NCBI RefSeq assembly: GCF_000027125.1
Contig: NC_017626.1
Origin: Escherichia coli 042
GTDB taxonomy: Bacteria; Pseudomonadota; Gammaproteobacteria; Enterobacterales; Enterobacteriaceae
Direction: 5' to 3' (one strand)
Length of the DNA: 64,000 nucleotides
A program made the position numbers. Position 1 is the stretch's first letter, and each line of letters starts with the position of its first letter. Positions 25,901 to 37,900 of this stretch are shown piece after piece.

Positions 25901-28900
25901 ACTGGCTGATGCTCGTCAAAAAAGGGAAGAGGCCAGAAAACTTGTTGCTGCAGGCATCGATCCCCGTGAACACAAACGTGCAGTGAAAGAAGAGCAGACG
26001 AAAGAGGCTATTACCTTTGAGTCAGTTGCCAGAGAGTGGCACGCAGTAAATAAAAAATGGACAGAAGAACATAGCCGACGGGTGCTGAAGAGCCTGGAAG
26101 ATAATTTGTTCCCAGCAATTGGGAAGCGGAGTATTGATAGTTTTAGTACGCGCGATCTCCTTGTCCCTATCAAAGTAGTTGAGGCTACAGGGCGTCTTGA
26201 AGTGGCTTCGCGTCTTCAGCAGCGTACCAATGCGATTATGCGTTGTGCAGTGCAAAGCGGTTTGATCGATTACAATCCTGCTCAGGAGATGGCTGGGGCA
26301 GTTGCTTCAAGTAATCGTGTCCATCGACCAGCACTTGAACTGAAACGCTTACCTGAACTACTCCAGCGAATTGATAGCTACTCCGGACGACCTTTAACCC
26401 GTCTGGCTGTTGAGCTCACGTTATTAATCTTTATTCGTTCCAGTGAGTTGCGCTTTGCCCGTTGGCCAGAGATCGATTTTGAAAGGGCAATGTGGACAAT
26501 CCCGGCAGAACGAGAAGCTATTGAAGGAGTGAAGCATTCGGAACGTGGCTCGAAAATGCGTACTCCTCATTTAGTGCCGCTTTCTCGTCAGGCACTGGCA
26601 ATCCTTAAACAGGTTCATAAGCTTAGTGGCGAGCGCGATTTTGTTTTCGTTGGAGATCACAATCCTTGTAAACCGATGAGTGAAAATACAGTGAACAAGG
26701 CGCTGCGCGTGATGGGATATGACACTAAGATTGAGGTTTGCGGTCATGGCTTCAGGACCATGGCATGTAGCTCGTTGATTGAATCAGGGCTGTGGTCTAG
26801 GAACGCTGTTGAAAGGCAGATGAGCCATATGGAGCGTAACTCTGTACGTGCTGCTTACATTCATAAGGCTCAACACTTGGATGAGCGTAAAATGATGCTG
26901 CAGTGGTGGGCAGATTTTCTTGATGTAAATCGGGTGAAGGGCGTCAGCCCATTTGATTTTGCCAAGGAGAAATGAGCTATGGTAATGAGGTTATAGATAA
27001 GAGAGAATACTACTTTATCGCGGGTTTTTAGTGGCTGGCAGGTCTAGATGAGTAGAAAATTCAAGTAATCTACACTCACTCGACTTAAAGATGGGGCCTT
27101 TTAAAAGGTCCTGCTTTGATGCTTACTGGAATGATAACCGTCCTAATCGTTGGCGAGTTTGTTCCATAAGTCCTGAATCCATAGGTTTTCTCTCTCATTG
27201 ATATTAAGTAGCACCCATAAATTTTATTCAAGGATAAGAGATAATGGCAAATTTTTCGGTAGCTGCGAGAACATTAATTCATTTAGGGGCGGAACTGATT
27301 ACCTCAGATGAAGTTGCTATAAATGAACTTGTTAAGAATGCTTTTGATGCCGAATCTAAACGGGTTAGGATAAATGTATTCATACCTATTTCGCATTCGT
27401 TAATAGATGACTGCCTTGCAATACTCGACAATAGTAAAAAAGAGGAAGCTCTTCAAGATGATATTTTTCATATAAAGAAAATGTTAATTGAAAGTGTTTC
27501 TGAACCTTCTATTGCAGCCCAAGTAGAAGAGTTGTTGCTAAACTTAACTTCAGATTCTAGCAAGGATGAAGCAAAAAAAATAGTCGAGTCGATAAACTAT
27601 ATAACAATCGAAGATTCTGGTTGTGGAATGGATTTAGCGACACTTGAAACGGTATTTTTGGCAATAGGCACTCCCTCTAAAGTAAACTCTGAAAGTACAA
27701 AAGACTTAAATAGAAAAATCCTAGGCAATAAAGGTATTGGACGTTTAGCAATGATGAGACTTGGGGATATTGCCAACGTTACATCTTGGGTTGAACAAGG
27801 TAGTGCCCATGAAATTGAATTCGACTGGCGAATGTTTGACGATCCTGAAAAAATAATCACCGATATTGAATTTGAAATAAAACCGACCACTTGTCCAAGG
27901 CCAACACCTTCAGGGACTGTAATAAAGATAACAGCACTTAAAAGCTCTTGGACTGAAGAAAAAGTTCGCGAAAAGCTCGTGGGTGATTTTTTTAGAAGGT
28001 TACAAAACCCATTTGTGATGTCATTGGATGAAGGTAGCTCCGATAACACAAAAAAAAATAAAAAGAATAGAACTGTAGGCTTTCCAATAGATGTTCATAT
28101 TAATGGAGGAACTCGAATACCTATCGAAGGTATGAAGAAAGTGTTAACAGATTTAGTTCAGGCTGATATGGAGCTCTGGTTTGACCCAAACGGGATTGGT
28201 GATACACCTGAAGTTATTCTCCGTACGAGTTTGACTGACTACCAACGTGGAAATGAACCTGAAAATACTAATAGAACAATAGAAGAAGTAACACATGTTT
28301 TAAATGTTAATTTTGAAGCACTTAAGAAAATTGGCCCCGTAAGAGCTACTATTAGATGGTTTAATAGAGAACGGTTACGCCAGCAAGCTACTTTGCATGG
28401 TAACTGGAAAGCAGCGAAGGCCGAATTAGATTTATGGTGTGGAGGAATAGCAATATATCGAGATGGTTTTCGCATTGGATTTTCTGGACAATCAACCGGC
28501 GAAGACTGGCTGGGACTAGATAGTTCTGCTCTTAAGAGAGGAGGTTTTGCTGTAAACCGTATTCAGACTGTCGGTGCGTTAGAGATTTCAAGAAAAGAAA
28601 ATCCCGGTTTGGTTGATAGATCTAATAGAGAAGGATTGATTGAATCACCAGAATCCAATCTTGTAAGAGATATGCTGTCGAAATTTGCTATTGATGAACT
28701 TCGTCGCTACATCGGTCATGAAGGGCAAGAAGAGAAGAAAGCACGTCTAAATGATATAGTTGAAAGCGCTCCTGCAACTATACGCGCTCGGATACTGCAA
28801 GCTGAGCAAGGACTCACATCTATAAGGTCTAAGGTTCCCGCAGATGTTCAAGAATCAGTACAATCAATCGCAAATAATTTACACTTTATAAAAAATGAAG

Positions 28901-34900: not shown

Positions 34901-37900
34901 GGATAATGCATAATCATATTGCTTTCCAACCATTGGGCGTCGATCATAAATAGCATCCGCGACTACTTGCGCTACTTTTTGAGTGTATTTGGGTCTTTTT
35001 TTAACATCTAACGCTTTACCTATAAGTTCAACAACTTCATCACTCCCTGCAACTAAGGGAATATCAGCATAACGGCCTTGGATTTTAGTCCACTCTTCAC
35101 GAGTTTCAAGTCCAAGTCGAACAGCATATTGTCCAAAAGATTGATGTAATATACCTAAGATAATGACTTTACCATTTGTACGTGCTGCAGATTCAGCAAG
35201 CTCTTGGTAAAAATAAATATCATCGCCATTTCCTAAAGCTGATGCTTCAAGGAACTTACCTAGCTCGTCAATGATAAGCAAGGTACCATCTAACTTCGCT
35301 TCATCTGCAGCACTGCATATGTGTTTAATAAGTAATGATGCTGATTTTTTATAATCTTTATCACTACCACAAACATTATTCAGAGTTTGCGAAATTTGTT
35401 GGATTATGCTACCTCTGCGGCCAATAACTGGAAGTATTAACCATCCTTTTTTAACTTGGAATGCTTTATCAAAATCACTTTGTGAATCGACATTTAACAA
35501 TGACCTTGCTTTTTCACGTAGAGCTTTGTTAGGTGATAATGAACTTGCAAGAACTAACGCTAATGATGATTTCCCACTTCCATACGGACCAGTCCATGTG
35601 AAAGCTCGCTGTTGGCTATTCAGAACCTGCTTGGACATGTTTTCAAGAACGCTTTGTGCCGTGCCATTGCATACATATCCATCAAGCGCATCTTCGCGGC
35701 CAAGATCAGCATCAATACGGATGGAACGTTGGTATTGTCTCGCAATGCGAACCTGTTCTGAAAGAAGGTTTTTATTATGTTTAGTCATAAGCCTTTCCAA
35801 GCATGTTCAATTTAATTACTTCTGTTTCTGATGTTTTACGATGAACCTGGCGTAAACCAGCTGTATCAGTCCATATAAATGAACCTTCAGTTAACTCTTC
35901 TAATGCGAATAATCGTTCTGCAATAGAGTCTTCATCGAGCTTAAATACTCTACCCGGAGAACCGTCCCCATATGCAATTGTTTCGAAGGATAATGAGCTG
36001 AGATTTAGGGCCTTACGCTCCCAATAATCGATCAGAGCATAAGCAAATACACCATCAGACAAAGTAATCTTTGGACCTCGACGAAATGAAAAGTGTCCTT
36101 TTTTTTCTTCAGCTAGTAAACCTAATTCACCAAGCATAGGTTCGGCAAAGTCTTCAGGAGTGGTTCCACTCGACCGCGGTGCATAACTACGCAAACATGT
36201 CTCAATATCTCGAGAAAGTGTCATTGGTGATAGTTTTCTCCCAGGACAACATTGCGTAGCATAGTCAGCTAAAAGAGCCCGGAGGTCTTCTTGTGTAAAA
36301 GATGAAGAAACAACATGGTTAAATAACCAGTACCAAGTTGTCGAGCGTTCTCCTTTTCCTGAAAGCTTCCAATGGCTAAGCCATGCTGTCGAGGGATGCT
36401 CTGAATAAGGATCAAGCCCATGTTCGCTAAATATTTTAATAGCAAATTCTGTAAGTTTGAATTTACCATCCTCTTCTCGCATTACTTCACAGGCGAGTGC
36501 CCAATGCTTGATTGATGCGACCATGTTTTTGCCTACACCAAATTTGGCAATGGCCTCATCATTCGAAAAAACCGATTTGTCAATAGAACCATCCGGCGCT
36601 GCATAACTGCAGGTTTTTTTTAACCACATTTGTCTTAGTGGGAAGGTCTCGTGACCTGAAAAGTGAGCCATGACTTATCCTAATGCGATAACAACTTTGT
36701 ATAAGCTGATTGTACAGGAACTGGAGAGTTTCACCAGTGGCGGCTTTTGGACATCATTGGGGTGGCGTAGCGGTTTTTTTTTTATTTTTTTCGTTAAAAT
36801 ACATATTGTTAATTGTTTTTTATTGCGGAGGGGAACTGTCTATATCTTCTCATGCATCGGGATTTTTAACAGGCCTGAGCTGGCATGTTCTACCGTTTCA
36901 CACAGAAAGGAACAGTTAGTTTCAAACGGATACTTATCAATCAGTGGTGTGAGAAATGCTAAGAGTGGGAAACGCACTTAATTTTATGATTTCTTAGTGA
37001 CCAGTTTTTAACCATGAGCTAATCTTAAAATCTGATTTTTATCAATGAGTTAATGTTGATGTACTATGCGGCAATGAATGAAGTGTATTGCCATTCCGAA
37101 TTTTTGCTCATTTTTTAGCCATTTCCATACTTTTTTGCGTGAATATTTTATGAACAATGTTCCTTTCATAACTTATCTGTCTCAAATGATACGTTTGGAG
37201 TTTACAATTACTAAATATTTAATGTAAGTGGGAACAGCTATTTTTTGTTCATATTAGCTCCCAGCAGCAAAAGATGATGTAATTCATCCGGTGCAGAGAT
37301 AATATAGGAATGGATAATCTGGAGAGCGACTCTGCAGGCTGATATTGCGGTTTTGCGGCAAGTTTTTGGCATCCGCTTCTACGCCAAATACCTGAAGTAG
37401 GAATGGATGCGTTAGCAGCATACATCCGGATCTGCGCGGGGAATAGCCGGAAACGGCTATCCCTACCACAATAGCTAACTTTGTAATAGTGCCCTTTTAG
37501 GCTCATGTACTCTGACGTAATTCTATCTGGTAGTTGAATTGCACGATACGCGACTCTTCTGATTCATCATGATTATTATTCAATAGCCCAATCAGTAACT
37601 TACCCGTCTCTATCCCCATTTTTTTGTAGTCAATACGGATGGATGTCAAGGTTGGGTGTGTTTGATCGCAATTGTCTGAACCATCAAGACAAGCTACAGC
37701 GATATTTTCAGGAATTTTTAACAAACGCCGCTGGCACTCAAACATGATACCCAGCGCAATCTCTTCGTGGCTGCAAATCACAGCATCCAGCTCTGGTTGT
37801 CGCAGTAATATCTCGTTTAATGCGTAACGCCCCAATTGCAGACTTGCGGCATCCGGCATGGTGATAACAAGATCAGAGTTCTGGTAATGGCTCAACATTG

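Follow-up and report, generated by a model that had tools for sequence, protein, structure and literature searches.

The stretch of DNA analysed here, referred to as the window, comprises 64 kb of Escherichia coli 042 (contig NC_017626.1) and holds the E. coli leuX island, in which a tRNA-Leu gene and an integrase gene are followed by the genes of a histidine kinase (HK794) and a receiver-effector protein (RR616) and, convergent to these, by sspD-sspC-sspB, the modification module of an Ssp DNA phosphorothioation (PT) system. The integration site of the island, the tRNA-Leu(CAA) gene leuX, lies at 25438..25522 on the plus strand (ARAGORN; RefSeq annotation of the identical E. coli locus) and precedes a P4-type tyrosine integrase of 417 amino acids (aa) at 25722..26975 on the same strand (NCBIfam NF007246, E 1e-82). 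HK794, a soluble kinase of 794 aa in which Pfam, NCBIfam and PDB profile matches disclose two GHKL modules, is encoded at 27244..29628 and RR616, with 616 aa in the list of open reading frames (ORFs), at 29625..31475, both on the plus strand and with a 4-bp overlap. On the minus strand sspD (31624..32481), sspC (32456..35800) and sspB (35781..36671) overlap one another as one operon, and their products were all matched over their full length: a PAPS-reductase-family ATP pyrophosphatase with an SGGKDS motif (PADLOC SspD, E 1.4e-140), a BrxC-like P-loop ATPase with the Walker A motif GSGKS (PADLOC SspC, E 0, 1451 bits) and a DUF4007 protein (PADLOC SspB, E 6.9e-115; RefSeq 'DUF4007 family protein'). 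The present analysis concerns the relation of the kinase/receiver pair to this module.

In a previous inspection of the same DNA, the sequence-only reading, the two operons had been described as convergent, about 150 bp apart, of common AT-rich composition and enclosed between the integrase and the next unrelated module, and this layout was confirmed in every respect. The gap between RR616 and sspD measures 148 bp (31476-31623), the GC content ranges from 0.36 to 0.42 over 26-38 kb compared with 0.50-0.55 upstream on the tRNA side, and past sspB an IS110 remnant is followed by an unrelated LacI/PTS module. A repeat search of the convergent gap yielded a perfect 15-nt inverted repeat (31513-31527 / 31537-31551, not assigned to a strand), a probable bidirectional terminator; on account of its AT-richness the hairpin escaped a scan for intrinsic terminators. 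On its right side (36672-37500) the island borders on the remnant of the IS110 transposase (~37268-37375) and an AT-rich non-coding stretch of 600 bp; a search for an attR repeat of the 3' end of the tRNA-Leu gene gave no match. With five genes on 9.4 kb the cassette is native to E. coli, and the 10 kb from 27000 to 37000 are matched at ≥99% identity in nine of the 5426 complete E. coli genomes, e.g., strain CV839-06, in all of which it occupies leuX, downstream of yjgR, ahr and leuX. A homologous integrase also precedes the cassette in Pectobacterium, Yersinia and one metagenome contig.

In two of the nine island-bearing genomes (ETEC1747 and B1.H1.39) frameshifts interrupt the kinase gene, and sspB or sspC is broken up as well (L038 6001-8383 and 14536-15380; L039 6001-8384 and 11212-14544); in B1.H1.39 the annotated length of the flanking yjgR differs as well. 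Counter-selection against the kinase was considered and set aside, as the ssp genes and the flanking core gene in those assemblies also change in length; an indel error of the assemblies is more likely than decay, joint inactivation being possible too.

The modification module of the window is accompanied by none of the canonical partners of SspBCD. Neither PADLOC nor tblastn with E. coli SspE-like, SspF, SspG and SspH queries returned a homologue of SspE, SspF, SspG or SspH in the 64 kb, in agreement with the previous remark that the canonical partners were not evident. Such a situation is common, since 2,211 of 2,678 sspBCD modules (~84%) were reported without SspE or SspFGH and the existence of more restriction partners was proposed (Wang et al., 2021, PMC8092258). 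Likewise, no sspA, the gene of the cysteine desulfurase, was detected in the island (ORF list, PADLOC), whereas related loci do carry it (L002, L003, L011, L014 and L033). As the island is without sspA, the sulfur donor in E. coli would be the housekeeping IscS, which was found to serve sspBCD in this species (Wang et al., 2021, PMC8092258) and whose gene is located outside the window. Among the complete E. coli genomes sspBCD is rare (25 of 5426, ~0.5%) and occurs in three types of island, convergent with sspH-G-F in 14 genomes, with a gene for a 785-aa DUF262 SspE-like protein in two, and with RR616-HK794 in nine. Thus, the pair holds the convergent slot that SspE or SspFGH, both of them partners established by experiment, take in other E. 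coli sspBCD islands.

Co-occurrence across genomes was examined with the receiver protein as marker. A word-indexed search gave 84 related proteins. In an exhaustive profile search of 1.84 billion proteins, 345 representatives reached E<=1e-3, which marks the family as a rare one. Loci were retrieved from genomes, metagenomes, plasmids and assemblies (a profile scan of genome contigs contributed only three), and the resulting 33 loci fell into 16 clusters at 70% identity, here termed lineages, with receivers 22-100% identical to RR616 over all loci and 22-77% over the sampled lineages. In 14 of the 16 lineages, spanning Enterobacterales, Pseudomonas, Xanthomonadales, a Polaromonas plasmid and metagenomes, sspBCD was present in the retrieved locus, usually within 0.01-2.3 kb. 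One of the remaining two (L020/L021) is directly preceded, on the same strand, by sspG-sspH or sspF-G-H, in a locus that is cut off before any sspBCD could show, and the other (L032) is a very distant relative on a 6.6-kb contig that starts at the receiver gene itself and is uninformative on linkage. In L032 (63-6432) the relative matches only the receiver and helical parts of RR616; after it come genes for a ResIII/SNF2 helicase, for a HATPase_c_3 protein of 609 aa and for a PLD-family nuclease, an array that looks like a different, restriction-modification (R-M)-like system on the same receiver scaffold. In E. coli, DNA of the pair was found in the nine island-bearing genomes only and never without sspBCD; a scan of IMG/VR viral contigs gave no receiver relative, and a plasmid collection a single distant one, on Polaromonas pPNAP02.

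The kinase gene (HK) is kept in every related locus, adjacent to or overlapping the receiver gene (RR) in all of them, while the pair and sspBCD are linked in at least five gene orders. HK-RR is convergent with sspDCB in E. coli, Pectobacterium, Yersinia, two Pseudomonas, the Polaromonas plasmid pPNAP02 and L031; the order sspB-C-D(-sspA)-HK-RR on one strand, with gaps of 13-265 bp, is found in Pseudoxanthomonas, Dokdonella, P. fluorescens, L011, L014, L030 and L037; HK-RR-(sspA)-sspBCD occurs in L023, L025-L027 and L033, a divergent arrangement of HK-RR and sspBCD in L024, and in L035 the pair is separated from the ssp genes by 8 kb in which SIR2, AAA and helicase genes are inserted. The insertion in the latter locus (11995-20004; also in L036), which separates the pair from sspD-sspC, consists of SIR2_2, an AAA_15/AAA_23 ATPase and a DEAD/ResIII helicase.

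Given the rarity of sspBCD (25 of 5426 E. coli genomes) chance adjacency is negligible, and since the linkage is kept through rearrangement and down to ~22-25% identity, it reflects neither chance nor a single recent transfer. SspC of the window is 45% and 44% identical to SspC of the SspFGH-type and SspE-type islands of E. coli, respectively, and 39-41% to SspC of the Xanthomonadales loci that carry the pair, while in Polaromonas SspBCD is 56-81% identical to the window (SspC 56%) but the kinase only 36% and the receiver 25%. Partner modules have therefore been exchanged among SspBCD lineages with the association kept, a pattern to be expected of modular, functionally dependent components.

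The sequence-only reading had further suggested that the pair may fill the role of the canonical partners. In E. coli the pair does occupy their slot; a simple replacement, however, it is not, for in three lineages (L015, L020/L021 and L023) it stands beside sspFGH. It lies directly downstream of sspFGH on the same strand in L015 (585-9435), L020 (90-6571) and L021 (18-7569), and in L023 (12718-16061), where the retrieved sequence stops short of sspH, sspF-sspG follow downstream of sspBCD. The pair was never seen with SspE in any locus of this small sample, which would fit an SspE-like niche.

Two further neighbours in related loci bear on phosphorothioation. In Pseudomonas xantholysinigenes (L009 6303-7430; also L010 2384-3511) a gene for a 375-aa protein with Pfam SRA_ScoMcrA / ScoMcrA_N matches and a PADLOC match to type IV methyl-directed restriction endonucleases immediately precedes the kinase gene. 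Proteins of the ScoMcrA type recognise DNA with PT or 5mC, so that a reader-like gene beside the PT writer was unexpected. A DndB-like gene, DndB being a regulator of Dnd-type phosphorothioation, is convergent right after the receiver gene in two Xanthomonadales-type loci (L003 11894-13162, minus strand, E 2e-15; L014 11887-13152, minus strand, E 1.6e-12; PADLOC DndB).

The linkage in 14 of 16 lineages, the multiple gene orders and the shared convergent slot strongly support the proposal, already made in the sequence-only reading, that the pair is a cognate Ssp partner and not a chance neighbour; the comparison across genomes that had been advised there turned out clearly positive. As to its nature, HK794 and RR616 probably constitute a cytoplasmic His-Asp phosphorelay that serves as a dedicated partner module of SspBCD, a third type beside SspE and SspFGH.

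The domain structure of HK794 agrees with a double-GHKL kinase, as had been predicted. Pfam places HATPase_c_3 (PF13589) at the N-terminus and HATPase_c at the C-terminus, where the second module also comprises a DHp region, and NCBIfam reports the GHKL part of BbrUII-type restriction enzymes together with an AtoS/ZraS-type kinase. The N-terminal Bergerat ATPase head of the Hsp90/MutL/MORC type (aa 1-~240; 27244..27963, plus strand), recognised through PF13589 and its invariant motifs, matches Hsp90/TRAP1 N-domains in PDB at profile positions 18-198. In an alignment of 18 homologues (32-87% identical) the head residues E28, N32, D35, D124xGxG128 and G161-K163-G164-G166 (G161xKGxG166) are invariant. 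The transmitter (28939..29625, plus strand), delimited by alignment and phmmer, consists of a DHp helix with H585 (codon 28996-28998) and a catalytic ATP-binding (CA) domain; phmmer aligns aa 566-793 to ZraS, ThkA, EnvZ and HK853, and the PDB profile matches include DHp-CA of histidine kinases. Its H-box H585-E-L-x-R589, N-box E695-N696-L697..N700, G1 box D730xGxG734 and F744 are invariant in the 18 homologues, as is G756xG758 of the G2 box, with G754 present in ≥90% of them. With the head motifs, the H-box and the N, G1, F and G2 boxes conserved throughout or nearly so, both ATPase modules look catalytically competent. The region in the middle (aa 240-565) contains a conserved block, G400-E463.

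RR616 is less readily classified. Its true start is likely M3 at 29631, where the homologues begin at the equivalent position and RefSeq annotates 614 aa. Neither NCBIfam nor PADLOC gave a match, Pfam only a weak partial one to Response_reg_2, a receiver (REC) family, and a profile search of PDB nothing informative. Three regions can be seen in an AlphaFold2 model for which 66 homologues were used (pLDDT 86.5): aa 1-210 form a receiver domain, aa 212-342 are helical, and the C-terminal region is alpha/beta. The receiver (29625..30254, plus strand), interrupted by a helical insert at aa 30-116, has a complete fold with acidic pocket, phospho-acceptor Asp, Ser and Lys; the residues DDD, D144 (the phospho-acceptor, codon 30054-30056), S179 and K208-P209 are invariant in 66 sequences. 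The helical linker (30258..30650, plus strand), defined by secondary structure in the model, has the conserved residues W258-E-L-D261, R281-Y282 and E326. It leads to a domain at aa ~365-490 (30717..31094, plus strand) that by predicted secondary structure and structural similarity adopts the MazF/Kid/CcdB/ToxN-superfamily fold, an SH3-like barrel, each match aligning 88-99 residues, and that carries an invariant patch, W382-L-N384-x-T386-Q387-x-C389-D390, plus W440 and R468. A variable last subdomain (aa 494-616; 31104..31472, plus strand) completes the protein. The effector had been called restriction-like, which is not borne out, as the output has a MazF/Kid/CcdB toxin fold and no recognisable DNA nuclease fold. 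Two other views of the C-terminus were tried: a transcription-factor output was rejected in view of the toxin fold and the lack of a DNA-binding domain such as a helix-turn-helix, and hhalign of one C-terminal half against the other detected no duplication, which leaves the idea of two MazF-like domains in tandem, as a pseudo-dimer, without support. No conserved small antitoxin-like ORF stands beside the receiver gene in the related loci.

From this architecture we infer that the pair may read the PT status of DNA. HK794 would dimerise via its DHp helices, with the Hsp90/MORC-type head acting as an ATP-driven clamp or sensor that reports the state of the DNA (phosphorothioated or unmarked) or that of the SspBCD machinery and thereby sets the balance between autophosphorylation at H585 and phosphatase activity. 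Phosphotransfer to D144 of RR616 would rearrange the helical linker and unmask the MazF/CcdB-fold domain, which could then arrest cell or phage by RNA cleavage (MazF-like) or by poisoning of a DNA enzyme (CcdB-like), or might only bind nucleic acid. SspE is stimulated by PT and SspFGH is excluded by it; the trigger of the pair might be either the presence of PT, following the logic of SspE, or its absence, following that of SspFGH. This complete scheme, a His-Asp relay as self/non-self readout of a DNA backbone mark in which a MORC-like clamp distinguishes PT from unmarked DNA or senses the Ssp machinery and receiver phosphorylation switches on a MazF/CcdB-fold toxin, is put forward tentatively and is considerably less secure than the partnership itself.

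Several points weigh against the interpretation of the pair as an effector module reading PT. Defence, toxicity, phosphotransfer and PT dependence are all predictions, and the sample is modest, with 16 lineages that stem partly from short metagenome contigs. In HK794 no sulfur-binding or DNA-binding domain was identified. The likeness of RR616 to MazF is one of fold only, at 6-14% identity; hhalign of the RR616 C-terminal alignment against B. subtilis MazF gave a probability of 0.1%, and no Pfam PemK or CcdB match was obtained for RR616 or 66 relatives. Since the position of the catalytic Arg of MazF is not conserved (R381 in RR616, E in the family consensus), the toxin-fold domain may not be an RNase. 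Finally, as three lineages have both SspFGH and the pair, the latter may be an accessory or regulator and not a primary effector.

The chief rival reading takes the pair as a guard, a backup suicide module in the manner of PrrC with EcoprrI. PrrC-EcoprrI and RloC are R-M-linked suicide ribonucleases, latent toxins embedded in a DNA-modification-based immunity locus. By analogy the kinase would monitor the integrity of SspBCD and not the PT mark, so that inhibition of SspBCD by a phage would fire the toxin and abort the infection. The same strict linkage with sspBCD speaks for such a guard, the toxin fold of the output is one that abortive-infection effectors, e.g., ToxN and AbiQ, typically have, some loci hold the pair together with SspFGH, which is a true restriction module, and an exchange of partner modules between SspBCD lineages is compatible with it as well. 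On the other hand E. coli, Pectobacterium, Yersinia and many others have only the modification genes and the pair, without a restriction component that could be inhibited, and most pair loci lack a restriction subunit. There is no homology to either protein, and the pair would be controlled by phosphorylation, PrrC and RloC by a peptide or nucleotide. We therefore regard a guard as rather unlikely, though as the strongest of the alternatives.

A regulatory two-component system without effector, which would tune Ssp activity or expression, e.g., by limiting PT density or switching modification on, is less probable still. A control of R-M systems has been speculated upon for HEF_HK/Response_reg_2 pairs (Bellieny-Rabelo et al., 2021, PMC8011034), in several lineages sspBCD(A) and the pair share a transcription unit, and genes for DndB-like regulators are nearby in two loci. 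However, the convergent arrangement gives the pair a transcription unit of its own, and a purely regulatory role is disfavoured because the conserved output of RR616 is toxin-fold and not a helix-turn-helix or other DNA-binding domain.

Quite improbable is an addiction module, similar to toxin-antitoxin systems, that would stabilise the mobile Ssp island by releasing the toxin domain upon its loss and play no part in phage defence. The MazF/CcdB fold and the integrase with which the cassette travels in Enterobacterales would suit it, but a kinase of ~800 aa with two ATPases and fully conserved catalytic motifs far exceeds the needs of an antitoxin, and a plain addiction module is disfavoured because the association is specific to Ssp and not to mobile elements in general (no copy in IMG/VR viral contigs) and holds in non-mobile contexts, namely in chromosomal loci without integrase and inside ssp operons.

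That two independent defence systems merely share an island, the alternative left in the sequence-only reading, is scarcely credible: defence genes do cluster, L035 has others between the modules and the most distant relative, L032, lies in a different context (helicase, HATPase_c_3, PLD nuclease), yet the recurrence close to sspBCD, often in one operon, together with the fact that E. coli has the pair only where the rare sspBCD is present, contradicts it.

Returning to the pair as a dedicated partner of SspBCD, its likeness to described systems can be specified. It shares with SspBCD-SspE and SspBCD-SspFGH (Xiong, 2020; Wang, 2021, PMC8092258) the same full-length SspB, SspC and SspD, a likewise tightly linked partner module and, in E. 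coli, the same convergent position; and as SspE can coexist with SspFGH (Wang, 2021, PMC8092258), so can the pair. It differs in that it has no homology to SspE (DUF262 and HNH) or to SspF, SspG or SspH (PADLOC, tblastn), and in its predicted nature as a His-Asp phosphorelay with a MazF/CcdB-fold output, where SspE and SspFGH are a DNA nickase or translocase.

Among the closest described families are the 'two-component-like' HEF_HK/Response_reg_2 pairs with a paraMORC-type head (PF19191/PF19192), recognised bioinformatically in 2021 with a linkage of the two genes of 91.6% and in neighbourhoods enriched in C5 cytosine methylases and type II R-M systems (Bellieny-Rabelo et al., 2021, PMC8011034). 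They have the same plan, in which a soluble kinase runs from HATPase_c_3 at the N-terminus through an H-E-x H-box to HATPase_c at the C-terminus, the neighbouring gene encodes a receiver protein whose REC domain is divergent, and DNA-modification genes are nearby; the N-terminal HATPase_c_3 of the kinase and the adjacency of kinase and receiver genes are present here, too. The profile matches are faint, with an independent E-value (i-E) of 4.6e-4 over 60 residues for the partial match of RR616 to Response_reg_2, a family that is matched by 7 of the 66 receiver relatives at E<=1e-3 and by 37 of them at E<=0.1; HK794 matches HEF_HK at i-E 0.065, and one distant homologue has a weak precomputed match. 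In the present case the modification partner is SspBCD (± sspA, sspFGH), with no methylase seen among the neighbours here or in the related loci, whereas the description of the family mentions neither phosphorothioation nor DUF4007 nor PAPS reductase, and a toxin-fold output domain is not described there (PMC8011034).

With the prokaryotic MORC/paraMORC GHKL ATPases (Iyer, Abhiman & Aravind, 2008, PMC2292703) HK794 has in common the HATPase_c_3-type Bergerat ATPase beside DNA-modification genes, and its head carries their motifs I-III, but it is fused to a complete histidine-kinase transmitter. Compared with MazF/Kid/CcdB and ToxN/AbiQ toxins, the domain of RR616 is without sequence similarity and has an invariant patch of its own (N384, T386, Q387, C389, D390, R468); moreover, it is fused to a receiver, while MazF/CcdB-type toxins are neutralised by a separate antitoxin, and unlike MazF, CcdB and ToxN it carries an extra subdomain of 120 aa after it.

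The exact RR616 protein (WP_000354454.1) is listed, with a mean log-odds of 13.27, in Table S10 of DefensePredictor among the novel defence genes predicted in 3,000 E. coli strains (Science, 2026, PMC13092281), and was not found in those of its tables of screened units that were looked at. Neither a reappraisal of Dnd (PMC10853773) nor a BREX census (PMC12839542) mentions the pair, and in the incomplete literature covered no paper was found that joins Ssp or phosphorothioation with a histidine kinase, GHKL, MORC or receiver. What is new is an Ssp system with a signalling-based partner module; the family of pairs and the prediction for the receiver were already known, and the link to Ssp was not found published.

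Of the 25 complete E. coli genomes with sspBCD, nine (36%) are accounted for by the pair, which probably also explains a share of the 'orphan' sspBCD in Pseudomonas, Xanthomonadales and other Proteobacteria, and it lends a functional context to the uncharacterised HEF_HK/Response_reg_2-type pairs. If the proposed scheme is true, a two-component signalling pathway would here for the first time form the effector arm of an epigenetic immune system, and SspBCD would have a third class of partner with no mechanistic relation to the other two; classical two-component phosphotransfer and a kinase-gated MazF/CcdB-fold toxin would thereby enter phage defence. How PT marks are read out without SspE or SspFGH becomes accessible to testing, and with a compact cassette native to E. 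coli the experiments are straightforward.

Apart from the island, the window contains other segments of low GC content (0.37-0.41) at 10001-12000, 44001-46000 and 60001-62000, which may be horizontally acquired insertions.

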